DNA of 64,000 nucleotides from Flavobacteriaceae bacterium (lineage in GTDB: Bacteria; Bacteroidota; Bacteroidia; Flavobacteriales; Flavobacteriaceae), in NCBI GenBank assembly GCA_947453195.1, contig CANGFO010000004.1, forward strand, positions 69,672 through 133,671, in the 5' to 3' direction. The first letter of the stretch is position 1. The number at the start of each line of letters is the position of its first letter. The position numbers and the translations under genes were made by a program. Below, in pieces: positions 10,395 to 46,953 of the stretch. The notes beneath the pieces were generated by a model that saw only the letters and a list, made by a program, of their open reading frames with translations, did not search any database and was not told the DNA's origin.

Positions 10395-11432
10395 ATGAAA
10401 AAACTATTACTTTTTTTTATTTCAGCTTTAGCGTTTAACGCACAAGCTCAAGATCAATTTTTCAATTCTGACTGTGAATCATATACTGTCGGAAATATTA
10501 GTACAGATTTAACAGGTGCTACTGCTGGTCAAGGTGGATGGTACACTTACACTCCAACAACAGCTGTTCCTGTAGGAACACTTTCTGATTATCAAGTTGT
10601 AAACAATACGGTTTCAAATTCAAAAGTTCTTCAAGTTTCTGGTTCTTCAGGTGCTGCTGGATCTAGATATTTATCTCAAGATATTTCAACTGCTTGGACA
10701 GGTAGAACATCTGGAAACGACATTGTTCAATTAGAATATGATTTCTTCACAGGAAGTGGTGTTACAACTTCTAAAAATACTTTCAGAACTTACATTTATA
10801 ATAATGATGGTTCTGCAGTAATCGCTGTTGCAGGATTTCATTTTGATCCTGCTACTTTAAAACTAAGCGGTTGGGCTTATTATGATAACGCTGGTACTGC
10901 TGGATATTATATTTTTAATTTAATTACTGGTGGATTAACATTAAGTGCTAATACATGGTATAGAGTTGGAGTTGCTTACGATTATAATACGGGAGACGTA
11001 ACATGGAAAGAAGCTAATGGTTTATTCTATTCAGGAGTTACTGCTGCTTCTTCGGGAATTGATATTTCAGAATGTGACTTTGCAGTAAGTGCTGGTACAA
11101 GTAATACTGTTGCAAATCAATTTCTAGTTGATAATGTAAATATTTCTGCTGTTGCTGTTGAAGCCTTATTAGGTACTAATACGAATTCATTTTCTACTAA
11201 AGATTTTTCTGTATTCCCTAATCCAGCAAAAGATTTTGTAAACGTTTCATCAACTTCTTCTTCAATTAATTCAATTGAAATTTCTGACTTAAATGGAAGA
11301 GTAGTTAAAACAGTAAATGCTATTGATGCTGCAAATGCTCAAGTTAACGTTGCTGATTTATCAACTGGAGTTTACATGATGAAAATAGTTTCTGATAAAG
11401 GAACTACAACTAAAAAGGTTATTAAAGAATAA
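10395..11432 (+). CDS. T9SS type-A sorting domain secreted protein
   Basis: Signal peptide; C-terminal FSVFPNPA..GVYMMKI..TTKKVIKE; Ser/Thr/Gly-rich beta-type body. Confidence 0.9.
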   Translation: MKKLLLFFISALAFNAQAQDQFFNSDCESYTVGNISTDLTGATAGQGGWYTYTPTTAVPVGTLSDYQVVNNTVSNSKVLQVSGSSGAAGSRYLSQDISTAWTGRTSGNDIVQLEYDFFTGSGVTTSKNTFRTYIYNNDGSAVIAVAGFHFDPATLKLSGWAYYDNAGTAGYYIFNLITGGLTLSANTWYRVGVAYDYNTGDVTWKEANGLFYSGVTAASSGIDISECDFAVSAGTSNTVANQFLVDNVNISAVAVEALLGTNTNSFSTKDFSVFPNPAKDFVNVSSTSSSINSIEISDLNGRVVKTVNAIDAANAQVNVADLSTGVYMMKIVSDKGTTTKKVIKE

Positions 11433-11452: not shown

Positions 11453-11485
11453 AAAAAGACTAAGCATTGCTTAGTCTTTTTTTTT
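11453..11485 (+). terminator. Rho-independent terminator
   Basis: aaaaagactaagc-att-gcttagtctttttttt. Confidence 0.85.
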
Positions 11486-11669
11486 GCTATTAATTCAATA
11501 ATAGTATTATAACGAAAGTACTATTTACTTATGACATTCATGATAATTTTACATTTAGTGTAATAAAAAGTCATTATTTTTATATACTATATAATTTTAT
11601 TTTAAAAAAATTACACAATATTCTTTTTTAGATTTGCTAATTTAGTATATTTATGCAAAATTTATATAT

Positions 11670-12089
11670 ATGGAAATAGCAGCATGTCCCAAGTGCCAAA
11701 ATGATACCATAGTAAAAAGTGGTGTAATAAAGGATAGACAAAGGTATTTATGTAAAAAATGCAATTATTACTTTACCGTTAATAAACTTGGAAAAAAAAT
11801 AGATAGTTACTATGTAACCAAGGCTTTGCAACTTTATCTAGAAGGATTAAGTTATCGTGAAATTGAGCGAATTATCGGGGTTTCTCACGTCACAATTAGC
11901 AATTGGGTAAGAGAATTTAAAATTACTAAACCAAATCATACCGATTACCATCCTACGTACAAAATATATAATCATTTAGAATTAGTTGAATTTCTAAAAA
12001 ATAAAGACCAATTAAAGGGGGCAGGGATGATTATAACCGAACTAGGAGATAAGTTCATGCTGATAAAATGGGAACGTTTTAAAGATTAA
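11670..12089 (+). CDS. IS1 InsA-like Zn-ribbon + HTH protein with no transposase partner (probable DNA-binding regulator)
   Basis: CPKC..VKSG...RQRYLCKKC Zn ribbon, then ALQLYLEGLSYREIERIIGVSHVTISNWV HTH; no DDE domain or InsB ORF follows. Confidence 0.8.
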   Translation: MEIAACPKCQNDTIVKSGVIKDRQRYLCKKCNYYFTVNKLGKKIDSYYVTKALQLYLEGLSYREIERIIGVSHVTISNWVREFKITKPNHTDYHPTYKIYNHLELVEFLKNKDQLKGAGMIITELGDKFMLIKWERFKD

Positions 12090-12194
12090 CTATAGTAGTT
12101 TACAAAATTATATACATAATTTTTTTTCATATACCTAATTTTAGAATTTAGTCGAGCAATTAAATTGTATTACTAACCTAAAAATTACCAATTT

Positions 12195-13457
12195 ATGAAA
12201 AAAATTATTTTATTATCCTTTGCAGCTTTTTCTGCAATAGGTTACTCACAAACACCTGCTTCAGCTACTTCTGCTCCAGCAGCTAAAGAATGGGAGGTAA
12301 ATATGTACGGTTTCATTAGAACCGATTACATTTTTGATTCTAGAAAATCTGCTTCGGTAAGAGAAGATGAATTAAATCTTTATCCTTTAGATGTTGCTCC
12401 GGATAATAAAGGAAGTGATATCAATGCCGTTAATCAATCTAATTTCTTATCTGTTGTTTCTAGACTAGGAGTTAAGGCAAAAGGTCCAGATGTATGGGGT
12501 GCAAAAATGAATGGAACTTTAGAAGGTGACTTCTTTGGAAATACCGAATCCAGTCCTTCTTCAATAGGAATGTTTCGTTTGCGTCATGCTTTTGTAACAA
12601 TGGATTGGGCTAAGACTCAATTAACAATGGGGCAAACTTGGTACCCTACATTTATTCCTGAGGTTTTTCCCGGTGTTGCTAACTTCAATACTGGAATTAT
12701 GTTCAATCCTTTTGGATGGGCAACACAAGTTAAATTTAAACATAACTTATCTAAAGTAATATCTTTAGCAGTTACTGCCTATAAAGAAAGAGAGTTTGCA
12801 AACGCTATTGTTTCTCCTGGAACTCAAAATGCTGCTTCAATCAACTCGGCTTTACCTTCATTTAATTTATTATTCCAATTTAAAAACAACAATTGGATTG
12901 CAGGATTAGGAGCTGAATATAAATCACTACAACCACTTACAGATAATGGAGCAACAACAAAATTAGTTACTACTGAAAAAGTAAATAGTTCATCTGTTTT
13001 TGGATATGCTAAATATTCTAATGATAAATTTTCTGTAAAAGCTTATGCTATTTCAGGAGGGAACCTAAATAGCTTGGTGATGCTAGGAGGTTTTACAGGA
13101 ACTACAAATAACGGTATTCAATCATTTGATCCTACTAAAACAACTTCTTATTGGATTGATATTGCAAGTAATGGTAAAAAAGTGGCTCCTGGATTCTTCT
13201 TTGGATCAACTAAAAATAATGGAGCAAGTACTGCAGGAGCTATCTACATGCGTGGCTTAAGTGGACCTAGAGTAGTAGATAATGTTTGGAGAGCTTCAGG
13301 TAGAATTGATTTCAAACAAAACAAATTTAGAGTTTCTCCAGAAATAGAATATACTGCAGCTACATGGGGTGATGTAGATACTTTTGGAAAAGCTGGAGAT
13401 AACAAAACTACTGTTGGAAACATGAGAGTATTAGTTTCCTGCGTATATTCATTTTAA
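12195..13457 (+). CDS. DcaP-like outer-membrane porin
   Basis: Signal peptide, MYGFIRTDYIFD, SRLGVKA, LEGDFFG, FRLRHAF and terminal CVYSF. Confidence 0.8.
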   Translation: MKKIILLSFAAFSAIGYSQTPASATSAPAAKEWEVNMYGFIRTDYIFDSRKSASVREDELNLYPLDVAPDNKGSDINAVNQSNFLSVVSRLGVKAKGPDVWGAKMNGTLEGDFFGNTESSPSSIGMFRLRHAFVTMDWAKTQLTMGQTWYPTFIPEVFPGVANFNTGIMFNPFGWATQVKFKHNLSKVISLAVTAYKEREFANAIVSPGTQNAASINSALPSFNLLFQFKNNNWIAGLGAEYKSLQPLTDNGATTKLVTTEKVNSSSVFGYAKYSNDKFSVKAYAISGGNLNSLVMLGGFTGTTNNGIQSFDPTKTTSYWIDIASNGKKVAPGFFFGSTKNNGASTAGAIYMRGLSGPRVVDNVWRASGRIDFKQNKFRVSPEIEYTAATWGDVDTFGKAGDNKTTVGNMRVLVSCVYSF

Positions 13458-13489: not shown

Positions 13490-15286
13490 ATGAGTGATAA
13501 ATCAACAAAAGGAATTTGGAAAGTAATTTCGGCTTCCTCTTTAGGTACGATGATAGAATGGTATGATTTCTACATCTTTGGAAGTTTAGCAGTAGTTTTG
13601 TCTACTAAATTCTTTCCGTCAGACAATCCAACAGCCGCATTCTTATCTACATTAGCAACATTTGCTGCAGGTTTCGTGGTTCGTCCATTTGGTGCCTTAT
13701 TCTTTGGGCGTCTTGGAGATTTAATTGGAAGAAAATATACTTTCATGGTAACCTTAGTTTTAATGGGGGGAGCAACTTTTATGATTGGTTGTATTCCTAG
13801 TTATGAAACAATTGGTTTCATGGCACCTTTATTAGTATTGTTACTTCGTTTACTTCAAGGTTTAGCTCTTGGAGGAGAATATGGTGGAGCAGCAACTTAT
13901 GTAGCTGAGCACGCTCCTAGAGGACAAAGAGGTTATTGGACTTCATGGATTCAAACTACAGCAACTGTAGGTTTAATTATTTCTTTAATGGTAATTTTAA
14001 TTACTAAAGGAATATTATCTAAAGAAGAGTTTGATGCGTGGGGATGGAGAGTTCCATTCTGGGTATCTATCATCATGGTATTTGTTTCGTATTTGATTCG
14101 TAAAAACATGGATGAATCTCCAGTTTTTGCTAAAGCTAAAGCAGAAGGAAAAACGAGTGTAAATCCATTAAAAGAAAGTTTTGGACATAAATTAAATTTG
14201 AAATTTGTTCTTTTAGCTTTATTTGGAGCGACAATGGGACAAGGAGTTGTTTGGTATACTGGGCAATTTTATGCAATGAGTTTCATGAAAACAGTTCAAA
14301 GTATTGATTCTTCTCAAGTAGATACTTTATTAGGAATTGCTTTATTATTGGGTACACCATTCTTTGTATTCTTTGGATGGTTGAGTGATAAAATTGGTAG
14401 AAAAACTATTATGATGGCAGGTATGCTATTGGCTATACTTTTATATCGTCCTATTTACCGTCAGATGTATCATTTAACCGATGCAAAAGAAATGGTAAAA
14501 AATAACATTACCGTTGTAAAAGATAGTTGTAAAGCTATTGGATCATATGTAGCAACTGTTAAAACTGAGGCGGATAAAAAAGATCCATCTGTAAAAAACA
14601 CTAAAATCTTTATTGATTTCAAAACAGATACTTTATATTCTAATGGAGCTAAGTTTCACTTCACAAAAACGGATACTTTATACCTAGCTAAAGAATTAGC
14701 TTATGATGCTAAGGCAGCTGGTAAAAATGAAACGTGGATTAAATACAACTCAAAAGATAAAGCTGGGGTTGTTGTTCACAATGTTGTTAAAGTTAAAAAC
14801 GACTTGAAAGAGGATGAAAAACCAGTAAAAGTGGATACTCTTGCAGCTTTAGCATTGAAAACATTTACAAGTGGAGAAGCTAAAGATAAATCTCACATTG
14901 ATGGAATTAGTGTTAAGCCAAACGTAGCTGTAGTGAAAAATATTACAGACGATGTTAGATGGACTTTAATTTTCTTAATTTTTGTACAAGTAATTTTTGT
15001 AACTATGGTTTACGGGCCTATTGCTGCTTTCTTGGTGGAAATGTTCCCTGTAAAAATTAGATATACGTCGATGTCATTACCTTACCACGTTGGAAATGGC
15101 ATCTTTGGTGGATTATTACCTGCAATTTCAACTTACTTAGTTACAACTGCAAAAGGTACAGGTCCTAAACCATTAAATCCGGAGTTTTACTTAGAAGGAT
15201 TATGGTATCCAATTATCATTGCAGCGGTTTGTTTCGTAATCGGAATGATCTATATTGACAAAAAAATTAATACACTTCACGACTAA
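13490..15286 (+). CDS. MFS metabolite:H+ symporter (MHS family) with a large soluble insertion
   Basis: IEWYDF, FGRLGDLIGRK, GGEYGG, LSDKIGRK and EMFPVKIRYT; ~160 hydrophilic residues inserted in the C-terminal half. Confidence 0.92.
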   Translation: MSDKSTKGIWKVISASSLGTMIEWYDFYIFGSLAVVLSTKFFPSDNPTAAFLSTLATFAAGFVVRPFGALFFGRLGDLIGRKYTFMVTLVLMGGATFMIGCIPSYETIGFMAPLLVLLLRLLQGLALGGEYGGAATYVAEHAPRGQRGYWTSWIQTTATVGLIISLMVILITKGILSKEEFDAWGWRVPFWVSIIMVFVSYLIRKNMDESPVFAKAKAEGKTSVNPLKESFGHKLNLKFVLLALFGATMGQGVVWYTGQFYAMSFMKTVQSIDSSQVDTLLGIALLLGTPFFVFFGWLSDKIGRKTIMMAGMLLAILLYRPIYRQMYHLTDAKEMVKNNITVVKDSCKAIGSYVATVKTEADKKDPSVKNTKIFIDFKTDTLYSNGAKFHFTKTDTLYLAKELAYDAKAAGKNETWIKYNSKDKAGVVVHNVVKVKNDLKEDEKPVKVDTLAALALKTFTSGEAKDKSHIDGISVKPNVAVVKNITDDVRWTLIFLIFVQVIFVTMVYGPIAAFLVEMFPVKIRYTSMSLPYHVGNGIFGGLLPAISTYLVTTAKGTGPKPLNPEFYLEGLWYPIIIAAVCFVIGMIYIDKKINTLHD

Positions 15287-15298
15287 AACCTAGAAATT

Positions 15299-15517
15299 AT
15301 GATGAACGCAATAAAAAAATATATTGGAATAGTATGGATCGCTTTAGCAGCTATTGTCGCTTACTATTGCATCGGAATCTTTGGAGGAAAATTAACCTCT
15401 GGTAAACAAGATGATTTGGTTTTCGGAATTATTATCTTCTTTGTATTACTTCCTTTAGTGGTTACAGGACTTACTATTTTTGGTTGGTATGCTATGACCA
15501 ATGAATATGAAGATTAA
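15299..15517 (+). CDS. Small 2-TM membrane protein (DUF6814-like)
   Basis: 72 aa with two hydrophobic helices, directly after the MFS gene. Confidence 0.7.
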   Translation: MMNAIKKYIGIVWIALAAIVAYYCIGIFGGKLTSGKQDDLVFGIIIFFVLLPLVVTGLTIFGWYAMTNEYED

Positions 15518-15537
15518 TTAGTTACTATTTAACTTGT

Positions 15538-15570
15538 AAAAGCTCTTAGAAATAAGGGCTTTTGCTTTTT
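15538..15570 (+). terminator. Probable rho-independent terminator
   Basis: aaagctctta-gaaa-taagggcttt followed by a T-rich tail. Confidence 0.6.
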
Positions 15571-15641
15571 TAATAAACTTGTTAGCTATTTCTTTTTTCT
15601 TAACTAAAATGTAATTAATTTTAACATCTAATAATAAATAG

Positions 15642-15836
15642 ATGAAAAAAAGACACCAACAAAAAATGCTTATCATATCCTATGTTTTATTCATGGGTTT
15701 TAACATGCCGTTGGTTTTACTTTTTGATTCCTCTGCATCAGCGTTTGGTATTCCATTTATTTACTTTTATTTTTTCACTCTTTGTTTGTTATCTATAGTA
15801 ATATCCTTAATAATTGTAAAACGATATAATGAATAG
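15642..15836 (+). CDS. Small 2-TM partner protein of the SSS-domain kinase
   Basis: 64 aa, two TM helices with FGIP loop; overlaps the kinase start by 8 nt, as small SSS accessory subunits often do. Confidence 0.7.
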   Translation: MKKRHQQKMLIISYVLFMGFNMPLVLLFDSSASAFGIPFIYFYFFTLCLLSIVISLIIVKRYNE

Positions 15837-18516
15837 CATAGTATTATTAGTTATACTTACTGGTTATTTGTCTGTATTATTTTTCATTGCTCATTGGGCA
15901 GAAAAAAATGAAAATAATAAATGGACCAATAATCCGTATGTTTATACTTTATCTCTAGCTGTATATTGTACCGCTTGGACCTATTATGGTAGTATTGGAG
16001 TAGCAGCCGATCATGGCTTAAGCTATTTACCAATATATTTAGGCCCCATAATTATTGCACCTTCGTGGATATTAATTTTGAAAAAAATCATAAGAATATC
16101 TCGAGTAAATAAAATATCTAGCATTGCCGATTTCATCTCTTTACGATACGGGAACAGTCGTTTTTTAGGTGCTATAGTTACAGTTATTTGCCTTGCAGGA
16201 ATATTGCCATACATAGCCTTGCAATTAAAAGCTATTGCAGAAACTTTTCACATTGTTACCAAAACAAAAGCTAGTTCTTTAATATTTAATGATACTACCA
16301 CATATGTTGCCATTGCGTTAGCTCTATTTGCATCTTATTACGGAACTAGATATGTAGACGCCTCCGAAAAAAGAAAAGGAATTGTAACAGCCGTTGCTAT
16401 TGAAAGCGTTTTAAAATTAGTTTTCTTTCTAATAATTGGAATTTATGTTACCTACTTTGTTTTTGATGGGTTTGAGGATATTTATCAAAAAGCATCCTTA
16501 TTAGAACATTTTAAAGAAAAAAATTCCATTGGTGGTCTGCCTCAAGCAATCAATTGGTTTTTACTTTGTATACTTTCCATGTTTGCTATCTTTTTACTAC
16601 CACGACAATTTCAAGTATCAGTAATTGAAAATAACAGAGAAAACCATATCAATACAGCGGTATGGTTGTTTCCTTTGTATTTATTACTGTTCAATATTTT
16701 TGTTTATCCAATAGCTTGGGGAGGAAATATATTATTTGAAGGACAACATGCCAATTCGGATACTTATTCGTTATTAATTCCGCAATTATTTAATCAAAAA
16801 CTACTTACAGTTATGGTTTTCTTTGGAGGATTTTCTGCAGCAATTTCAATGATAGTTGTATCTTCTATTGGTCTTTCTACTATGGTTACAAACAATATTT
16901 TAATTCCATATAATTTAATTGGAAAACTTAAAGGAACAGAAGATTCAATAAGTTCAAGAAAAATTCTAAATACTCGTAAAATGAGTATCTTTTTTCTAAT
17001 CATTTTATCCTACTTAATATATCAATTCTTTGGGCTAGATTATAGTTTAGTTTCTATAGGAATGGTTGCTTTTGTAATTATTGCCCAATTATCTCCTGCT
17101 TTTTTCGGTGCTTTATTTTGGAGAAGAGGATCAAGGCTTGGGGCGATTTCTAGTATTATTGTTGGATTTATTATTTGTGTTTATACGCTGCTTATTCCAT
17201 ATTCTATTGGCACAAGTAATAGTTCGAGTACTTTTATTACAAATGGTTTTATGGGAAATCATTTATTAAAACCATTCCAATTATTTGGATTGGATTATTT
17301 AGATCCAGTTCCGCACGCCTTATTTTGGAGTTTGCTTTTTAATTGGATTACTTATTTTGCTGTTTCAGTTAGTTTTAAAGGCAATTATAGAGAACGGAAT
17401 TACGCCGAAATGTTCGTAGATATAAGTAAATACATCACCAACCACGAGAATGTTTTTGTTTGGAAAGGAACAGCCTACCGAAATGATATCGAGAAAGTAT
17501 TGATACGTTTTCTTGGATTGGAACGAACTAAGCGGGCAATGAATATTTTCAATATTAAATACAACGTAGATAGCAATCAAGAATTAGCTGACGCACGATT
17601 AATTAAGTTTTCCGAAAATTTACTCACAGGTCACATAGGAACTGCCTCTGCAAGAATTTTAATTTCGAGTGTTGTCAAAGAAGAAAAAATTAGTTTGCCT
17701 GAGGTTTTAAAAATATTAGAAGAGTCTAAAGAAAATATTATCATCAACAAAAAACTTACAGAAACTTCTAATGAACTTAAGGAGATTACAGCTAAACTTC
17801 AAATAGCGAACCACTCACTAATTGAAAAAGACAAACAAAAAGATGAATTCCTTGATACCGTTACACATGAGCTAAGAACTCCAATAACTGCTATTAGGGC
17901 GGCTAGTGAAATATTACACGATGATGACGAAATTCCTGAAGAATTAAAAAAACAATTCCTGCAAAACATTATTTCCGAATCGGATCGTTTGAATAGACTG
18001 ATTGATAAAATCTTAGATTTAGAAAAATTTGAAACAGGAAAACAAACCATAAATCCTGAGGTGAATAATCTAGTTGCAACAATTGAAAATTGTATTGAAC
18101 CACTTACTCAATTGATAAAAAACAAAAATATTACCATTGAATTTGATACTAAAAATAGAATAGATGCGTATTATGATGAAGACCGTATAATTCAATTGGT
18201 TACCAATTTGCTTTCTAATGCCATTAAATTTTGTCCAGATAATAAAGGAGTAATATCCATTAACATTGAAACTAAAGGAAATGAAATTTTAACTTCGGTT
18301 ACAGATAATGGGAAAGGAATTAACACATCCGACTTTGAAGCTATATTCGAAAAATTCTATCAATCGAATAATCAAAATATTAAAAAACCTGAGGGTAGTG
18401 GTTTAGGATTAGCTATTTGCAAACAAATTATAGAACATCATAAAGGAACTATTTGGGTAGAACCAAGCGAAATAGGAGCCCAGCTAGTATTTACTTTACC
18501 AATAAAACCAGAATAA
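15829..18516 (+). CDS. SLC5 (Na+:solute symporter)-STAC-histidine kinase, CrbS/CbrA-like
   Basis: N-terminal SSS domain (LSLAVYCTAWTYYGSIG, SIADFISLRYG), STAC-like FSENLLTGHIGTASARIL, H-box THELRTP, and NLLSNAIKF, DNGKG, GSGLGLAIC. No PAS or receiver domain evident. Confidence 0.9.
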   Translation: MNSIVLLVILTGYLSVLFFIAHWAEKNENNKWTNNPYVYTLSLAVYCTAWTYYGSIGVAADHGLSYLPIYLGPIIIAPSWILILKKIIRISRVNKISSIADFISLRYGNSRFLGAIVTVICLAGILPYIALQLKAIAETFHIVTKTKASSLIFNDTTTYVAIALALFASYYGTRYVDASEKRKGIVTAVAIESVLKLVFFLIIGIYVTYFVFDGFEDIYQKASLLEHFKEKNSIGGLPQAINWFLLCILSMFAIFLLPRQFQVSVIENNRENHINTAVWLFPLYLLLFNIFVYPIAWGGNILFEGQHANSDTYSLLIPQLFNQKLLTVMVFFGGFSAAISMIVVSSIGLSTMVTNNILIPYNLIGKLKGTEDSISSRKILNTRKMSIFFLIILSYLIYQFFGLDYSLVSIGMVAFVIIAQLSPAFFGALFWRRGSRLGAISSIIVGFIICVYTLLIPYSIGTSNSSSTFITNGFMGNHLLKPFQLFGLDYLDPVPHALFWSLLFNWITYFAVSVSFKGNYRERNYAEMFVDISKYITNHENVFVWKGTAYRNDIEKVLIRFLGLERTKRAMNIFNIKYNVDSNQELADARLIKFSENLLTGHIGTASARILISSVVKEEKISLPEVLKILEESKENIIINKKLTETSNELKEITAKLQIANHSLIEKDKQKDEFLDTVTHELRTPITAIRAASEILHDDDEIPEELKKQFLQNIISESDRLNRLIDKILDLEKFETGKQTINPEVNNLVATIENCIEPLTQLIKNKNITIEFDTKNRIDAYYDEDRIIQLVTNLLSNAIKFCPDNKGVISINIETKGNEILTSVTDNGKGINTSDFEAIFEKFYQSNNQNIKKPEGSGLGLAICKQIIEHHKGTIWVEPSEIGAQLVFTLPIKPE

Positions 18517-18535
18517 AAAATTGAACCAAATCAAT

Positions 18536-18898
18536 ATGAAAAAGATACTAATCGTAGATGATGAGCCAAATATTGTAATGTCATTAGAATATACTTTCAA
18601 AAAAAATAATTTTGAAGTATATATTGCTCGCGACGGGCAAGAAGCATTAGATATTTTAAAAGCTAAGTTTCCTGATGTTATTATTTTGGATGTCATGATG
18701 CCAATGGTAGATGGGTATGCAACCTTAGAGCAAATTAAAAAAGACAGCAATTTAACCCATACTAAAGTCATTTTTCTTTCTGCAAAAAATAAAGAAAGTG
18801 ATATTGAAAAAGGGATGGCATTAGGTGCTAATGCCTATTTAACTAAGCCGTTTTCAATAAAAAAAGTAGTCGAAAAAGTACAAGAATTAGTAAGTTAG
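18536..18898 (+). CDS. Single-domain response regulator (receiver only)
   Basis: ILIVDDE, LDVMMP, FLSA, KPF. The ATG at 18536 is preferred to the TTG at 18521. Confidence 0.92.
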   Translation: MKKILIVDDEPNIVMSLEYTFKKNNFEVYIARDGQEALDILKAKFPDVIILDVMMPMVDGYATLEQIKKDSNLTHTKVIFLSAKNKESDIEKGMALGANAYLTKPFSIKKVVEKVQELVS

Positions 18899-19831
18899 CT
18901 AATTTAAATTCATTGTCGTTCCTGCTGGAATCACATATTTTTTATCAGCTACTTTTATGTAAATAGGTAAGGAACTTAAATTAGTTACTTTATTTTTTAT
19001 TGCAGAGAACTTCAAATTTTTATAGGCATTGATATAATCAACCAAATCAATTTGTTTGGCATAATATATTGTTAAATTACCTGCTAACATTTTAAAGAAT
19101 TTTTCAGTTTCATTCCACTTGATTTCATCGGTTCCCATTTCCCAACTATGTCCCCAAATATCTAATACTGCTAATTCCTTTGATTTCAAAAAGGATTCAA
19201 TTGTTTGATAAAATAAGGCAATTTCTTTTTGATCTTTTTCTGGTTGATTCGGCTCCCAATAGGCTTTTGCAAACTGATGGATTGTAGGATGCCATCTCAA
19301 AAAATCATTCGGAATTTCAAAATTATAGGTATCTCCAACAGTTCTTGCATATTCAATTCCTAGCCGTTTTATGATTTCAACTACGGTATCGTTAGTGTTT
19401 CCAAAAGGGTAGGCCATTCCTCGTATAGGGTATCCCATTATACGCTCTAACTCTTTTCGATCTTCAAAAATTTCATTCGCAACTTCTGATTTAGAAATAT
19501 CTGGTAAATTAGGATGATTGGCAGAATGAACGGATACTTCATGACCCTTGTAAAGCTCCTTTAACTCCTCTTTATTTAAATAATCATAATAGGAATTAGT
19601 ACTTAATTTATTTGAATTTAAATGAAACGTTCCAATGAGTTGGTATTTGTTCATCATTGCGACCAATTTTCTGTCATTTTTTGCTCCATCATCATAACTC
19701 AAAATTAGTGCTTTGGTTTTTCCCTCAGGGAAAAGCATTTCAATTTTTATGGATTTGTTAGTGTCAATGTTAACTTGTGCACAATTAGAGAATGTGGTAT
19801 GTAACACTAAAATAAATATATACTTTTTCAT
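18899..19831 (-). CDS. Polysaccharide deacetylase (CE4/NodB family), exported
   Basis: SYDDG, HSANH and RGMAYPFG; N-terminal signal-like segment. Confidence 0.85.
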   Translation of the reverse strand: MKKYIFILVLHTTFSNCAQVNIDTNKSIKIEMLFPEGKTKALILSYDDGAKNDRKLVAMMNKYQLIGTFHLNSNKLSTNSYYDYLNKEELKELYKGHEVSVHSANHPNLPDISKSEVANEIFEDRKELERIMGYPIRGMAYPFGNTNDTVVEIIKRLGIEYARTVGDTYNFEIPNDFLRWHPTIHQFAKAYWEPNQPEKDQKEIALFYQTIESFLKSKELAVLDIWGHSWEMGTDEIKWNETEKFFKMLAGNLTIYYAKQIDLVDYINAYKNLKFSAIKNKVTNLSSLPIYIKVADKKYVIPAGTTMNLN

Positions 19832-19906
19832 AGATCTAAATTCTAATGCAAATTAATGATAATTAAGATTCAAAAAAGTTAATAATGCAAATTTTTTAAA
19901 AAAATG

Positions 19907-19963
19907 TATATACCTATTTAGCAAAATTAATTCTACTCGTATTTCTTTATTATCTAAATTTAC
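19907..19963 (+). promoter_or_regulatory. Candidate operator box plus TAnnTTTA promoter element upstream of the prpE-like gene
   Basis: TATATACCTATTTAGCAA at 19907-19924 and TAAATTTAC at 19955-19963; the same architecture occurs upstream of acs. Confidence 0.5.
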
Positions 19964-20000: not shown

Positions 20001-21896
20001 ATGAATTACGAAGAATTCTATTCTAAAAGTATCCAATCACCAGAAAAATTTTGGGCTGAACAAGCTGAAGCTATTTCATGGTTTAAAAAACCGACTGCCA
20101 TTTTATCTAAAGATGAAAATGATTATCCGTTATGGTTTAATGACGGGGAAATAAATGTTTGTTATTTAGCTTTAGATAAACATATAGAAGATGGGTTTGG
20201 GGATCAAGATGCTATAATTTACGATTCACCTGTTACACAAATTGTAAGAAAATATACCTTTAACGAAGTGAAAACAGAGGTTGCAAAACTGGCCGGAGGG
20301 ATGCTGTCCTTAGGATTAAAAAAAGGAGATACTGCAGTGATTTATATGCCTATGATTCCGCAAGCCGCTTTTGCTATGTTAGCTTGTGCAAGGATAGGAG
20401 TTACCCATTCGGTTGTTTTTGGTGGATTTGCTCCACATGAATTAGCCATTCGAATTGATGATTGCAAACCAAGAGTACTATTAACGGCATCTTCTGGGAT
20501 AGAAATTGATAGGCTGATTGCTTATAAGCCACTTGTGGATGAAGCCATTGAATTAGCAGAACACAAGCCAAAAAAAGTTATCGTTTTTAATCGGAAATTA
20601 GGTGCAAGAATTCCATTTAAGAAATACGATGTAGATTATGATGCTTTAGTCTATGGATCTGAAGAGACGCCCTGTGTGAGTGTTAATGCCACCCATCCTT
20701 TATATGTATTATACACATCTGGAACAACGGGAAAACCAAAAGGAATTGTCAGAGATTCTGGAGGCTATGCTACAGCACTTAAATTTTCAATGCAATACAT
20801 TTATGGAGCAAAACAAGATGAAGTTTTTTGGGCCGCTTCCGATGTGGGCTGGGTTGTAGGACATAGTTTTATTGTATACGGCCCCTTAATTAATAGAAAT
20901 ACCACTGTATTATTTGAAGGAAAACCAATTAAGACTCCAGATGCTAGTACTTTTTGGAGAGTAATTTCTGAACATAAAGTGGCAACTATGTTTACCGCTC
21001 CAACGGCTATTCGTGCAATTAAAAAAGAAGATCCAAACGGGGAATTTATTAAGCAATATGATTTGTCTTGTTTACGAACTCAATTTTTAGCTGGAGAGCG
21101 CTGCGATGTTGCTACATTAGAATGGTATAACCAACATATCCCTGTTCCTGCAATTGACCACTGGTGGCAAACTGAATCAGGTTGGCCAATGATTGCCGAT
21201 ATGATGGGAGTGGAGTATTTACCCGTAAAACCAGGATCTGCCGGAAAAGCAGTGTCTGGTTATGATATTAGAATATTTGGAGAAAACGGAACCGAATTAG
21301 GTCCTAATGAAGAAGGGTATGTAGTCATAAAATTACCATTACCTCCGGGAACCATGTTGGATTTATGGAAAGACAATCATCGATTTCAAGAAGGCTATTT
21401 GAAGAAGTTTCCTGGATATTATTTTTCTGGAGATGGAGGATATAAAGACGATGATAATTATATTTTTATAACGGGTAGGGTAGATGATGTAATTAATGTT
21501 GCCGGTCATAGACTTTCTACTGCAGAGATGGAAGAGATCGTTTCATCACATCACTCTGTTGCAGAGTGTGCTGTGGTTGGAATCAATGATGATTTAAAAG
21601 GTCAAGTTCCTTTAGGTCTAGTAGTTGTAAAACATGGTGAAGCTATAGAACATTTTCAATTACAGCATGAGGTAGTTCATTTAGTAAGAGAACAAATAGG
21701 AGCAGTGGCTTCTTTAAGGGATGTAGTTGTGGTAGAGCGATTACCAAAAACACGTTCGGGTAAAATTCTAAGAAAGTTATTGAGAAGTATCGCGGATGGA
21801 GAAAGTTTCCAAACTCCTTCAACAATAGATGATGAAGCAATAATAGATGAAATAAAGTTAGAATTTATAAAATCTAAAATAGGATCTTTTAAATAA
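20001..21896 (+). CDS. prpE: Propionate/acetate--CoA ligase (PrpE-like)
   Basis: YTSGTTGKPKG, DHWWQTESG, GRVDDVINVAGHRLST and PKTRSGKILR. Confidence 0.8.
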   Translation: MNYEEFYSKSIQSPEKFWAEQAEAISWFKKPTAILSKDENDYPLWFNDGEINVCYLALDKHIEDGFGDQDAIIYDSPVTQIVRKYTFNEVKTEVAKLAGGMLSLGLKKGDTAVIYMPMIPQAAFAMLACARIGVTHSVVFGGFAPHELAIRIDDCKPRVLLTASSGIEIDRLIAYKPLVDEAIELAEHKPKKVIVFNRKLGARIPFKKYDVDYDALVYGSEETPCVSVNATHPLYVLYTSGTTGKPKGIVRDSGGYATALKFSMQYIYGAKQDEVFWAASDVGWVVGHSFIVYGPLINRNTTVLFEGKPIKTPDASTFWRVISEHKVATMFTAPTAIRAIKKEDPNGEFIKQYDLSCLRTQFLAGERCDVATLEWYNQHIPVPAIDHWWQTESGWPMIADMMGVEYLPVKPGSAGKAVSGYDIRIFGENGTELGPNEEGYVVIKLPLPPGTMLDLWKDNHRFQEGYLKKFPGYYFSGDGGYKDDDNYIFITGRVDDVINVAGHRLSTAEMEEIVSSHHSVAECAVVGINDDLKGQVPLGLVVVKHGEAIEHFQLQHEVVHLVREQIGAVASLRDVVVVERLPKTRSGKILRKLLRSIADGESFQTPSTIDDEAIIDEIKLEFIKSKIGSFK

Positions 21897-21900
21897 TCTA

Positions 21901-21957
21901 TATATATTTATTTAGCAAGAAAAATCTTTTTCAAAATAATAGAATACTTATATTTAC
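21901..21957 (+). promoter_or_regulatory. Candidate operator box plus TAnnTTTA promoter element upstream of acs
   Basis: TATATATTTATTTAGCAA at 21901-21918 (16/18 identical to the prpE box) and TATATTTAC at 21949-21957, with the same spacing. Confidence 0.5.
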
Positions 21958-22002
21958 ATAAAATTAATTACTAGTTAAATTTAACTAATTACCCCAATTA
22001 CA

Positions 22003-23910
22003 ATGAGTTATTATAAAATACAAAACTTAGAACATTACTTTAAAATGTATAAAAAGTCGGTACGCGAACCTAGAAAATTTTGGGATCGTATTGCTGATGA
22101 GAATTTTACCTGGTACCAAAAATGGGAAAAAGTATTTGAATTTGATATGCAAGAATCTAAATTCAAGTGGTTTATTGATGCCAAAGTAAATATTACAAAA
22201 AATTGTATTGACAGACATTTATCAAAAAGAGGTGAAAAAACCGCAATAATTTTCGAGCCAAACGACCCTAGTGAAGCAGCCCAACATATTTCTTATAACG
22301 AATTGTATGCACGAGTTTCAAGAATGGCAAATGTTCTTAGAGAACAAGGTGTGAAAAAGGGAGATCGTGTTTGTATTTATTTACCAATGATACCTGAATT
22401 GGCAGTTTCAGTTTTGGCTTGCGCCCGAATTGGAGCTATCCATTCAGTTGTTTTTGCTGGATTTTCTTCTTCAGCAGTTTCAGCGAGAATTAACGACTCG
22501 GAATGTAAAATGGTAATCACTTCTGATGGAAGTTATCGCGGAAATAAAGCAATTGACTTAAAAGGAATTGTAGATGAGGCTTTAGAAAAATCTCCATGTG
22601 TAGAAAAAGTATTGGTTGTTAAACGTACAAATACTAATGTAAACATGAAAGAAGGACGCGACCAATGGCTGCAACCTTTAATGGATGCTGCAGTTCCAAA
22701 TAACGTAGCAGAAATTATGGATTCAGAAGATCCGTTATTTATATTGTATACTTCAGGATCTACAGGGAAACCTAAAGGAATGGTTCATACCACTGCTGGT
22801 TACATGGTTTATACAGCTTATACCTTTAAAAATATTTTTAATTACGAAGAAAATGACGTGTATTGGTGTACTGCTGATATTGGTTGGATTACCGGACATT
22901 CGTATATATTATACGGACCATTATTAAATGGAGCTACTACAGTAATTTTTGAAGGTGTTCCTTCTTATCCTGACTTTAGCCGTTTTTGGGAAGTAATAGA
23001 AAAACATAAAGTAAATCAGTTTTATACTGCACCAACTGCAATTAGAGCCCTAGCAAAGGAAAGTTTAGATTACGTTCAAAGATTCCCTTTAAGTTCATTA
23101 AAAGTTATTGGCTCTGTTGGAGAACCAATTAATGAAGAAGCATGGCACTGGTACAATGACCATGTAGGAGGGAAGCGCTGTCCACTTGTAGATACGTGGT
23201 GGCAAACCGAAACTGGTGGAATTATGATTTCACCAATACCTTTTGTAACCCCAACAAAACCAACCTATGCATCCTTACCATTACCTGGAATTCAACCGGT
23301 TTTGATGGATGAATTGCGTAATGAAATCGACGGAAACCAAGTTACAGGAAGTTTATGTATAAAATTTCCTTGGCCTTCTATGGCTAGAACAATTTGGGGA
23401 GACCACCAAAGATATAAAGAAACTTATTTCTCAGCATTCCCCGGTAAATACTTTACTGGAGATGGAGCATTAAGAGATGAAGTTGGGTACTATAGAATTA
23501 CCGGAAGAGTAGATGATGTAATTATTGTTTCTGGGCATAATCTAGGTACTGCACCAATAGAAGATGCTATAAATGAACACCCAGCCGTGGCAGAAAGTGC
23601 TATTGTTGGATTCCCTCATGATATTAAAGGTAATGCACTTTATGGTTTTGTAATCTTAAAAGAAGTAGGGGAAAGTAGAAATCATGAAAACCTTGCAAAA
23701 GAGATCAATCAATTGATTTCAGATCAAATTGGGCCAATTGCTAAATTGGATAAAATTCAGTTTGTTTCTGGTTTACCAAAAACAAGATCTGGTAAAATCA
23801 TGCGTAGAATTTTAAGAAAAATTGCCGAAGGAGATTTCTCTAATTTTGGGGATACTTCAACTTTATTGAATCCAGAAATTGTAGATGAAATAAAGGATGG
23901 TAAAATTTAG
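22003..23910 (+). CDS. acs: Acetyl-CoA synthetase (AMP-forming)
   Basis: YTSGSTGKPKG, CTADIGWITGH, DTWWQTETG and PKTRSGKIMRRILRK. Confidence 0.95.
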   Translation: MSYYKIQNLEHYFKMYKKSVREPRKFWDRIADENFTWYQKWEKVFEFDMQESKFKWFIDAKVNITKNCIDRHLSKRGEKTAIIFEPNDPSEAAQHISYNELYARVSRMANVLREQGVKKGDRVCIYLPMIPELAVSVLACARIGAIHSVVFAGFSSSAVSARINDSECKMVITSDGSYRGNKAIDLKGIVDEALEKSPCVEKVLVVKRTNTNVNMKEGRDQWLQPLMDAAVPNNVAEIMDSEDPLFILYTSGSTGKPKGMVHTTAGYMVYTAYTFKNIFNYEENDVYWCTADIGWITGHSYILYGPLLNGATTVIFEGVPSYPDFSRFWEVIEKHKVNQFYTAPTAIRALAKESLDYVQRFPLSSLKVIGSVGEPINEEAWHWYNDHVGGKRCPLVDTWWQTETGGIMISPIPFVTPTKPTYASLPLPGIQPVLMDELRNEIDGNQVTGSLCIKFPWPSMARTIWGDHQRYKETYFSAFPGKYFTGDGALRDEVGYYRITGRVDDVIIVSGHNLGTAPIEDAINEHPAVAESAIVGFPHDIKGNALYGFVILKEVGESRNHENLAKEINQLISDQIGPIAKLDKIQFVSGLPKTRSGKIMRRILRKIAEGDFSNFGDTSTLLNPEIVDEIKDGKI

Positions 23911-45983: not shown

Positions 45984-46856
45984 TTATCCTAATACTTCTT
46001 TTACTTTTTTACCTATTTCTGCTGGAGAATCTACTACGTGAATTCCACATTCTCTCATGATACGTTTTTTAGCTTCAGCAGTATCATCAGCTCCACCAAC
46101 AATTGCACCAGCGTGACCCATTGTACGACCTTTAGGAGCAGTTTCACCAGCAATGAACCCAACAACTGGTTTGCGGTTTCCATCTGCTTTTATCCATTTT
46201 GCAGCATCAGCTTCTAGTTGCCCTCCAATTTCACCAATCATTACGATGCAATTTGTTTCTGGATCATTCATTAATAATTCAACTGCTTGTTTCGTTGTTG
46301 TTCCAATAATTGGATCACCACCAATACCAATCGCAGTTGTAATTCCTAATCCTTGTTTTACCACTTGATCTGCAGCTTCATAAGTTAAAGTACCCGATTT
46401 AGATACAATACCAACTGATCCTTTTTTGAAAACAAAACCTGGCATAATACCCACTTTTGCTTCACCTGGTGTAATTACACCTGGACAGTTAGGTCCAATT
46501 AATCTACAATTTCTATCTTTAATATAATCATACGCTTTAATCATATCAGCAACAGGAATACCTTCAGTAATACAAATGATTACTTTAATTCCTGCATCGG
46601 CAGCTTCCATAATAGCATCGGCAGCAAAAGCTGGCGGAACAAAAATAATTGTAGTATCGGCTCCTGCTTTAACCACTGCATCTTTTACCGTATTAAATAC
46701 GGGACGGTCTAAATGTATAGATCCTCCTTTTCCTGGAGTAACTCCACCAACTACATTAGTTCCGTATTCGATCATTTGCTGTGCGTGAAAAGTTCCTTCA
46801 CTTCCAGTAAACCCTTGAACAATTATTTTTGAATCTTTATTAACTAAAACGCTCAT
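45984..46856 (-). CDS. sucD: Succinyl-CoA synthetase alpha subunit
   Basis: [30 protein letters not shown] and MGHAGA; TACTTTTG promoter element at 46893-46900. Confidence 0.97.
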
Positions 46857-46953
46857 GATAGATATATTATATTGTTTTTATTTTTTGTGTTGCAAAAGTA
46901 TAAAATAGTAATTAGTTTTTTAATTAAAATTTGCTAAATTTCTATATATACTA

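Follow-up and report, generated by a model that had tools for sequence, protein, structure and literature searches.

What does an InsA-like protein, a relative of the DNA-binding part of the IS1 transposase, do at the head of a locus for the uptake and activation of acetate and propionate, and is it still part of a mobile element? The question is raised by a 64,000-nt stretch of the genome of a Flavobacteriaceae bacterium (GenBank assembly GCA_947453195.1, contig CANGFO010000004.1, positions 69,672 to 133,671 of the forward strand), analysed here at its full length and called the window. In it, a short gene resembling insA, or orfA, of IS1-family insertion sequences (IS) precedes genes for a porin-like protein, a transporter, a sensor kinase, a stand-alone receiver (REC) protein and two ligases, prpE and acs. 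Our comparative analysis suggests, with a probability that we put at about 75%, that the gene encodes a domesticated and immobilised IS1-family OrfA acting as a transcription factor, with operators derived from the inverted repeats (IRs) of the ancestral element.

11670-12089, + strand: InsA/OrfA-like gene, 139 aa, supported by the open reading frame (ORF), profile matches, an AlphaFold2 (AF2) model, orthologue length and the ratio of nonsynonymous to synonymous substitution rates (dN/dS).

The encoded protein begins with MEIAACPKCQ...CKKCNYYF... and carries CxxC pairs at C6/C9 and C28/C31. Its layout, a Zn ribbon (residues 5-38), a helix-turn-helix (HTH, approximately residues 46-84) and a C-terminal tail of about 55 aa, had been described in the initial annotation and is borne out by the ORF call, Pfam, NCBIfam and the AF2 model. 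The NCBIfam model for the IS1/IS1595 Zn domain (NF050000) matches with 38.6 bits against a cut-off of 28, and Pfam HTH_23 is barely above its cut-off on residues 51-84 (25.2 versus 24.6 bits). Pfam Zn_ribbon_InsA (PF03811) reaches 21.1 bits on residues 5-31, under the gathering cut-off of 26.1, and a precomputed match to this family is present in some orthologues. The IS1 transposase model NF033558 scores 78.9 bits, under its cut-off of 100, and aligns residues 6-122 with profile positions 1-120 of 199, that is, with its N-terminal part only. Both the Zn ribbon and the HTH are visible in the AF2 model, which has a mean predicted local distance difference test score (pLDDT) of 81.9, and the tail is predicted as a small beta-alpha-beta-beta unit at residues 96-135. 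Foldseek returned nothing significant from the PDB, the generic HTH and weak Lrp/AsnC-like matches all having E > 0.05, and a profile search of PDB sequences likewise gave nothing significant, leaving the tail with no assignable fold relative. The DDE catalytic domain (PF03400) is not found in the protein, which stops at residue 139. When the window and 81 orthologous loci were searched by tblastn with a complete IS1 transposase, nothing beyond the OrfA part came up, in agreement with the initial annotation that InsB is missing. HTH repeats matching residues ~50-88 were also seen in another setting, namely in proteins of 430-830 aa that carry 5-11 of them in tandem (P0141, P0143, P0150, P0198, P0208 and others).

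The relationship to IS1 extends over the whole length of the protein. In tblastn searches against plasmids it showed 27-48% identity to genes annotated as IS1 family transposase, one of the matches spanning residues 6-139. Translated in frame 0, those genes give an OrfA of about 145-150 aa, in which Zn ribbon, HTH and linker are followed by VE(L/V)DEMHxYIGxKK, a segment that contains the first catalytic Asp and the A-run slip site, then by xGSGLLLIELGK... and a stop. The window protein is collinear with the entire OrfA, tail included (HLELVEFLKNKDQLKGAGMIITELGDKF), and has a Val where IS1 has its first catalytic Asp. When a gene of this kind from a Tenacibaculum finnmarkense plasmid (L083) is read with a -1 shift at CATAAAAAAACT, a product of 219 aa results that scores 216 bits with NF033558 and 67 bits with PF03400 (DDE_Tnp_IS1), and the element is therefore a bona fide member of IS1. 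On the strength of this collinearity, the 139-aa protein is, by descent, the entire frame-0 product of a -1-frameshifting IS1-family element, and its tail corresponds to the out-of-frame read-through of DNA that codes for the first strands of the DDE core.

Two IS1-like copies deserve a remark of their own. The closest IS-type relative of the domesticated family is the OrfA (P0130, 46% identity) of an element at 2447-3205 of L170, which has clear IRs and was seen in one genomic context only. The C-terminal DDE part of this element (TDYW...TVEG) shares the OrfA frame, so that a second frame change would be needed for reading it; the element is probably a decaying copy. A second T. finnmarkense plasmid copy shares the context of the first; it gives no independent definition of the IS boundaries, and a target duplication is not evident.

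Orthologues were sought in one genome per species, and the best 80 of 573 relatives, which come from 80 different Flavobacterium/Flavobacteriaceae assemblies and share 81-95% identity, were taken for locus comparison. The ORF is intact at exactly 139 codons in 79 of 79 cases, and the gene occurs once in the window and once per orthologous locus; in the complete chromosome of F. kingsejongi and in a complete Winogradskyella genome it is found at one place each, with the same synteny. Where synonymous sites are not saturated (most are), dN/dS is about 0.01-0.04. The corresponding ratio of nonsynonymous to synonymous differences (pN/pS) amounts to 0.13 in the Zn ribbon, 0.07 in the HTH and 0.10 in the tail, and the C-terminal stretch GAGMIITELGDKFMLIKWERF is almost invariant among the orthologues. 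Wherever enough downstream sequence is available, the gene heads a same-strand series made up of the porin-like gene, a transporter, small ORFs, the kinase, REC, and prpE and/or acs. It forms the 5' edge of this conserved block, and the genes upstream of it differ between loci.

Orthologues of 64-66% identity on marine metagenome contigs and in another uncultured assembly keep this order, and so do those of Tenacibaculum, Ulvibacter and the complete Winogradskyella genome. Records of the 139-aa protein exist for Lutibacter, Mangrovimonas, Jejuia and Neptunitalea too, which brings its range to at least seven other Flavobacteriaceae genera in all. The transporter itself has been exchanged: an MFS symporter with a DUF6814 protein (window 13490-15517) in Flavobacterium versus DUF4212 plus an SSF (ActP-like) transporter in the marine genera, the InsA-like gene, porin-like gene, kinase, REC and ligases being unchanged in the swapped loci (L084, L088, L180-L182). 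In public records, the InsA-like genes go by the names of IS1 family transposase, terminase gpP-related protein or DNA invertase. The domestication proposed in the initial annotation is thus strongly supported by single copy number, a fixed length of 139 codons, low dN/dS and constant synteny. Across the 80 assemblies and the additional genera, the orthologues are neither multicopy nor sporadic, and InsB never lies alongside.

Conservation is not limited to the coding sequence. In approximately 75-80 species, nearly invariant non-coding blocks of ~50 nt and ~65 nt lie before the ATG and after the stop of the InsA-like gene, respectively, with further conserved blocks upstream of prpE and acs, and they share the 17-nt motif TTGCTAAATNNNTATAT. 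With at most one mismatch, the window contains the motif 4 times, where 0.30 occurrences are expected. Across 1.4 Mb of orthologous loci, the InsA-like gene is preceded by 79 such sites in forward orientation, prpE and acs are preceded by 29 and 27, respectively, in reverse orientation, and only 4 lie elsewhere. The sites of the window, with the -7-like promoter boxes near them, are given below, with IRL and IRR denoting the left and right IR of an IS.

11634-11650, + strand: IR-like site 1, TTGCTAATTTAGTATAT, the IRL-equivalent, 20-36 nt upstream of the ATG in the near-invariant block.
11653-11669, + strand: IR-like site 2, ATGCAAAATTTATATAT, a weaker tandem copy 19 nt downstream of site 1 (motif and position weight matrix (PWM) scan).
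11628-11635, + strand: -7-like box TAGATTTG (TAnnTTTG), overlapping site 1, in the own promoter of the InsA-like gene.
12090-12105, - strand: degenerate IRR-like element abutting the stop, reverse complement TTGTAAACTACTATAG, 1 nt shorter than the IR.
12087-12150, + strand: conserved non-coding block before the porin-like gene (cross-species alignment).
19908-19924, - strand: reverse IR-like site before prpE, TTGCTAAATAGGTATAT (motif scan).
19955-19962, + strand: -7-like box TAAATTTA in the promoter of prpE, at a distance of 47 nt from the site start (box geometry).
21902-21918, - strand: reverse IR-like site before acs, TTGCTAAATAAATATAT (motif scan).
21949-21956, + strand: -7-like box TATATTTA in the promoter of acs, at a distance of 47 nt from the site start (box geometry).
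46931-46947, + strand: tentative IR-like site before the minus-strand sucD-like gene (45984-46856), reverse relative to sucD.

The motif recurs at the ends of true IS1 elements. Three independent Bacteroidota elements have IRs that all contain it:

T. finnmarkense plasmid IS1 (L083): IR GGCATTGCTAATTTAATATAG; right end, as reverse complement, GGCATTGCTAATTCAATAAAG.
L170: IR GGTATTGCTAAATTAGTAGAC; right end, as reverse complement, GGTATTGCTAAATTGATAGAC.
L178: IR GGTGTTGCTAATTTAAAATAC.

A weight matrix was built from the reverse-oriented prpE/acs sites only, and is therefore independent of the InsA-like gene's own promoter. In each of the three elements, its two top matches over both strands of 4.4-5.5 kb were the two IS ends, left and right, both facing inward as they should. 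Site 1 is also the top PWM match in distant genera, and the 19-nt tandem spacing of sites 1 and 2 recurs in L084, L088 and L180-L182. After the stop, the IRR-like element (TTGTAAA-N4-TATAG) is conserved in 80 of 80 Flavobacterium loci. In Tenacibaculum, Ulvibacter and Winogradskyella (L180-L182), two tandem forward sites precede the ATG and a full-length reverse site abuts the stop; the latter is the best match in 20 kb in L180, and holds rank 3 and rank 4 in L181 and L182. By these matches, the 17-nt motif is the terminal inverted repeat of Bacteroidota IS1 elements. Since tandem forward sites stand before the ATG and a reverse IR-like site stands at the stop, the InsA-like gene itself is a fossil IRL-orfA-IRR mini-IS1.

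On this point the initial annotation, in which no terminal inverted repeats were visible, was wrong in substance, as IS1-IR-like sequences flank the gene on both sides. They are recognisable only through phylogenetic footprinting and comparison with real IS1 ends; a search for self-complementarity around the InsA-like gene gave AT-rich noise and the terminator of the upstream gene (11453-11481) only. Flanking IS ends had been named in the initial annotation as a sign against domestication, and in form they are present here. The terminal GG of the L083, L170 and L178 ends is absent at the InsA-like gene, and the inner IR sequence is kept on both sides. Because the GG termini are missing, the positions are fixed across genera and the distance from the prpE/acs promoters is constant, these flanking sequences look like a co-opted operator rather than a mobile end.

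The placement of the sites relative to promoters is informative. The flavobacterial sigma-A -7 box, TAnnTTTG, is located at -12 to -5 (PMC9723704). A TAnnTTT[G/A] box lies exactly +47 from the site start in 57 of 59 reverse sites, as it does at prpE, acs and sucD of the window, and with the box placed at -12 to -5 the reverse sites fall at about -59 to -43 of the prpE and acs promoters, which would be a typical activator position. The presence of prpE/acs sites follows the intergenic gap, with 0 of 22 at gaps under 60 nt and 50 of 54 at gaps of at least 120 nt. At the own promoter of the InsA-like gene, sites 1 and 2 together cover about -6 to +30, by its geometry the position of a repressor. 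Promoter and operator of the downstream operon presumably lie in the conserved block at 12087-12150. A -7 box for the porin-like gene was sought as well; the window has a candidate, TAATTTTA, at 30 nt from the site, to which the other species do not align, and no convincing cross-species placement was obtained.

Other elements were noticed in the same intergenic regions. Before the porin-like gene, at 12110-12142, a direct repeat (ATATACATAATTTT / ATATACCTAATTTT) has the 19-nt spacing of the tandem IR-like sites and is not conserved in other species. The 5' leader of acs (21957-22002) contains an inverted repeat, TTAGTTAAAT/ATTTAACTAA; among the elements listed in a transcriptome study of F. 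psychrophilum is a structured 5' element, conserved in Flavobacteriaceae, that precedes acsA and belongs to no Rfam family (PMC9723704). Finally, the sucD-like site stands 47 nt from a perfect TACTTTTG box at 46893-46900. Membership of sucD in the regulon was rejected, the site being absent from 73 of 76 related loci; we retain it as tentative and lineage-specific, and at best it was added recently.

How might such a system have arisen and how would it work? We hypothesize that an ancestral IS1-family element landed before a short-chain carboxylate uptake and activation locus in the ancestor of many Flavobacteriaceae, and then lost orfB and its cleavable GG termini. The Zn-ribbon/HTH module would still bind the IR-derived operators, in the way InsA binds the ends of IS1. 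Occupancy of its own -7 box and start site would lead to autorepression, as at the IRL of IS1, occupancy of the sites that immediately precede the -33 region at prpE and acs would control these genes, most likely by activation, and binding beside the IRR-like site would control the promoter of the porin-transporter operon. The conserved tail could be a dimerisation or signal-receiving domain, which the adjacent REC-only regulator, having no DNA-binding output, may contact. That the tail receives the REC signal is an attractive proposal, although we rate it as less likely than not. The same caution applies to the fullest version of the scheme, a single network built from one IS, in which OrfA would be the transcription factor, the IS ends its operators and the prpE/acs sites later copies, the tail would be a folded signal receiver, and phosphorylated REC would act through it to replace the missing output domain; we regard this version as possible and rather speculative.

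Several points weigh against the interpretation as a domesticated OrfA with IR-derived operators. The motif is assigned to the protein through homology and co-localisation, the sign of regulation at prpE and acs (activator versus repressor) follows from site position only, and contact between REC and the InsA-like protein is a proposal only. The IRR-like site varies in length among genera (17, 16 or 15 nt), which one would not expect of a strict operator. Conservation of the sucD site is lacking, a comparable match being found in 3 of 76 related sucD loci and located elsewhere. In the marine genera, the ligase genes have no site in front of them; acs would therefore have to be controlled by operon read-through or from other promoters in these genera, and the prpE/acs sites look like a later expansion within Flavobacterium. 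Pairwise distances of the InsA-like protein correlate weakly with those of the kinase, REC and the prpE-like ligase (rho 0.19-0.35, against 0.80 for kinase versus REC), in a test on a short protein and a sample picked by similarity; versus acs, rho is 0.80 from 28 pairs only. We do not take these weak correlations as a sign of horizontal transfer. Metatranscriptome contigs from lakes are fragmentary and strandless, with a single 151-nt contig within the InsA-like gene, and they gave no readable transcription start sites.

A different explanation is that the motif is bound by another factor, such as an unlinked regulator or a partner of REC, and that the InsA-like protein is, for example, an autoregulated adaptor or anti-activator. 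The indirect assignment of the motif to the protein, the need of a REC-only regulator to work through some partner, and the marine loci that have no sites at the ligase genes would all fit. The motif is, however, the cognate end of the transposase family from which the InsA-like protein descends, tandem copies of it stand on the gene's own promoter in every genus examined, and the block encodes no other DNA-binding protein by Pfam and NCBIfam; we thus consider another factor unlikely.

According to a second alternative, the host keeps the gene as an inhibitor that blocks the transposition of incoming IS1, and its position at the acetate locus is a historical accident. Overproduction of InsA nearly abolishes IS1 transposition by competition at IRL and IRR (PMC12428005), and the presumed target of the window protein is the same as the IR of IS1 elements present in Flavobacteriaceae. 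Such a role leaves unexplained the fixed 47-nt spacing to the -7 boxes of prpE and acs, the restriction of prpE/acs sites to genes with a promoter region of their own, and the unbroken synteny across genera with changing upstream genes, which makes it very improbable. That the gene is a decaying or non-autonomous IS remnant (a mini-IS, similar to a miniature inverted-repeat transposable element), with no host function and possibly mobilisable in trans, as its inverted IR-like flanks and its database name of IS1 family transposase might suggest, is almost certainly wrong, since selection (dN/dS 0.01-0.04 while synonymous sites are saturated), single copy number and one fixed position across genera exclude a neutral remnant, and the invariant 139-codon length, the absent terminal GG of true IS1 ends and the conservation of the flanking non-coding DNA itself also speak against it.

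The other genes of the locus lie downstream of the InsA-like gene:

12195-13457, + strand: putative outer-membrane (porin-like) secreted protein, 420 aa (synteny; no Pfam or NCBIfam family).
13490-15286, + strand: MFS metabolite/H+ symporter (profile matches, synteny).
15299-15517, + strand: DUF6814 small protein (Pfam).
15642-15836, + strand: conserved 64-aa ORF, overlapping the kinase start by 8 nt.
15829-18516, + strand: SLC5/SSS-domain histidine kinase, CrbS-like and non-hybrid, 895 aa (HisKA, HATPase_c).
18521-18898, + strand: stand-alone REC protein, 125 aa, no output domain (profile matches).
18899-19831, - strand: polysaccharide deacetylase, between REC and prpE.
20001-21896, + strand: propionate--CoA ligase-like gene, prpE (Pfam and NCBIfam matches).
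22003-23910, + strand: acetate--CoA ligase gene, acs (TIGR02188, 952.8 bits versus a cut-off of 725).

The order of porin-like, MFS, SSS kinase, REC, prpE and acs genes given in the initial annotation holds, and its statement that the InsA-like protein is the only DNA-binding protein of the locus stands, no further DNA-binding domain being found in the block with Pfam and NCBIfam. The DcaP label attached to the porin-like gene had to be dropped, as neither database supports it. The SLC5 assignment of the kinase, which concerns its N-terminal 600 residues, comes from the 43%-identical kinase of L088, which aligns over the full length and carries PF00474, HisKA and HATPase_c; a PF00474 match was not obtained on the window kinase itself. 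The 64-aa ORF that overlaps the kinase is kept in most orthologous loci with 45-70% identity, figures among the called genes of F. kingsejongi and Winogradskyella, and has weak domain matches only (DUF3311/DUF2721-like); a small membrane subunit of the sensor kinase is one possible role.

Some features vary around this block. Its 5' boundary is marked by a perfect 14-nt hairpin followed by a T run at 11453-11481, which terminates the upstream gene (10395-11432) for a protein sorted by the type IX secretion system. The minus-strand deacetylase is found at that place in 0 of 80 orthologous loci and is a window-specific insertion that widens the gap between REC and prpE. The interval between REC and the first ligase gene holds a conserved ORF of 72-74 aa (MKFQ...) in L180 (17119-17393), L181 (17225-17443) and L182 (17315-17539), and none in the window. 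In F. kingsejongi (L081), the kinase is called as two ORFs of 389 and 493 aa (13946-16632), and a DDE_Tnp_1 insertion sequence lies between the two ligase genes (19030-19854); the carboxylate locus of this strain may be damaged.

Comparison with known systems helps to define what is particular to this one. InsA of E. coli binds the IS1 IRs through its Zn finger and HTH, represses the promoter overlapping IRL and competes with the transposase at both IS1 ends (PMC12428005). The window protein shares with InsA the N-terminal Zn ribbon and HTH, its origin as the frame-0 product of a transposase gene, the presumed IR target and a site overlapping its own promoter in a geometry of autorepression. 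Unlike InsA, it is not in a mobile element, is single copy, lacks orfB, DDE domain and GG termini, has extra sites at metabolic promoters and is 27-48% identical to bona fide IS1 genes. Its 139 aa, against 91 aa for InsA, are accounted for by the slip site of this IS1 subgroup, which lies after the first DDE strand, frame 0 continuing for ~35 codons. The frameshifting elements (the T. finnmarkense plasmid element L083, L170, L178 and L082 of the archaeon Methanomethylovorans) have an OrfA collinear over the 139 aa, including the GxGxxxxExG tail, and the IRs of the Bacteroidota elements carry TTGCTAAWTT..TA.A, the motif of the locus; in contrast to the window gene, they encode a full DDE transposase through a -1 frameshift, have IRs that start with GG and occupy unrelated contexts.

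On the metabolic side, the closest parallel is CrbS/CrbR (MxtR/ErdR), the acetate-responsive two-component system that controls acs in Vibrio and Pseudomonas (PMC5715377, PMC5436829). In both cases an SLC5-domain kinase is encoded beside genes for acetate uptake and activation, and a specific upstream motif is present at the acs promoter. The window differs in its non-hybrid kinase and in a REC-only regulator that has no counterpart of the LuxR-type HTH output of CrbR, and its candidate DNA binder is transposon-derived and unrelated to CrbR. Our full-text search of the literature turned up neither this protein family nor a domesticated InsA nor the motif and, as far as searched, no bacterial metabolic regulon reusing IS ends as operators.

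In eukaryotes, transposase-derived factors with binding sites derived from transposon ends are a textbook route to new regulatory networks. To our knowledge, the domestication of the DNA-binding module of a transposase together with end-derived sites is barely documented in bacteria. The TnpB-derived TldR repressors are RNA-guided, bacterial regulators of mobile-element origin (PMC10705468). These repressors and the eukaryotic factors share with the window case the reuse of a mobile-element DNA-targeting module for host regulation; the present protein differs from TldR in being protein-guided, in deriving from the regulatory OrfA of a DDE insertion sequence, and in the IS ends that were apparently reused as operators. 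The principle is therefore known from eukaryotes and from bacterial TnpB derivatives, and what would be new here is an OrfA-derived protein with IS-end operators.

The case is clean, ancient and widespread over many Flavobacteriaceae genera, and both of its stages are visible, an ancestral one with sites only around the gene and a later expansion to sites at prpE and acs. The tail is a possible example of a functional domain born from an overprinted reading frame. If the interpretation is true, the systematic misannotation of these genes as transposase, terminase gpP-related protein or DNA invertase would be corrected, and the missing regulator of acetate and propionate assimilation would have been identified in heterotrophs that are ecologically dominant in freshwater and marine environments.

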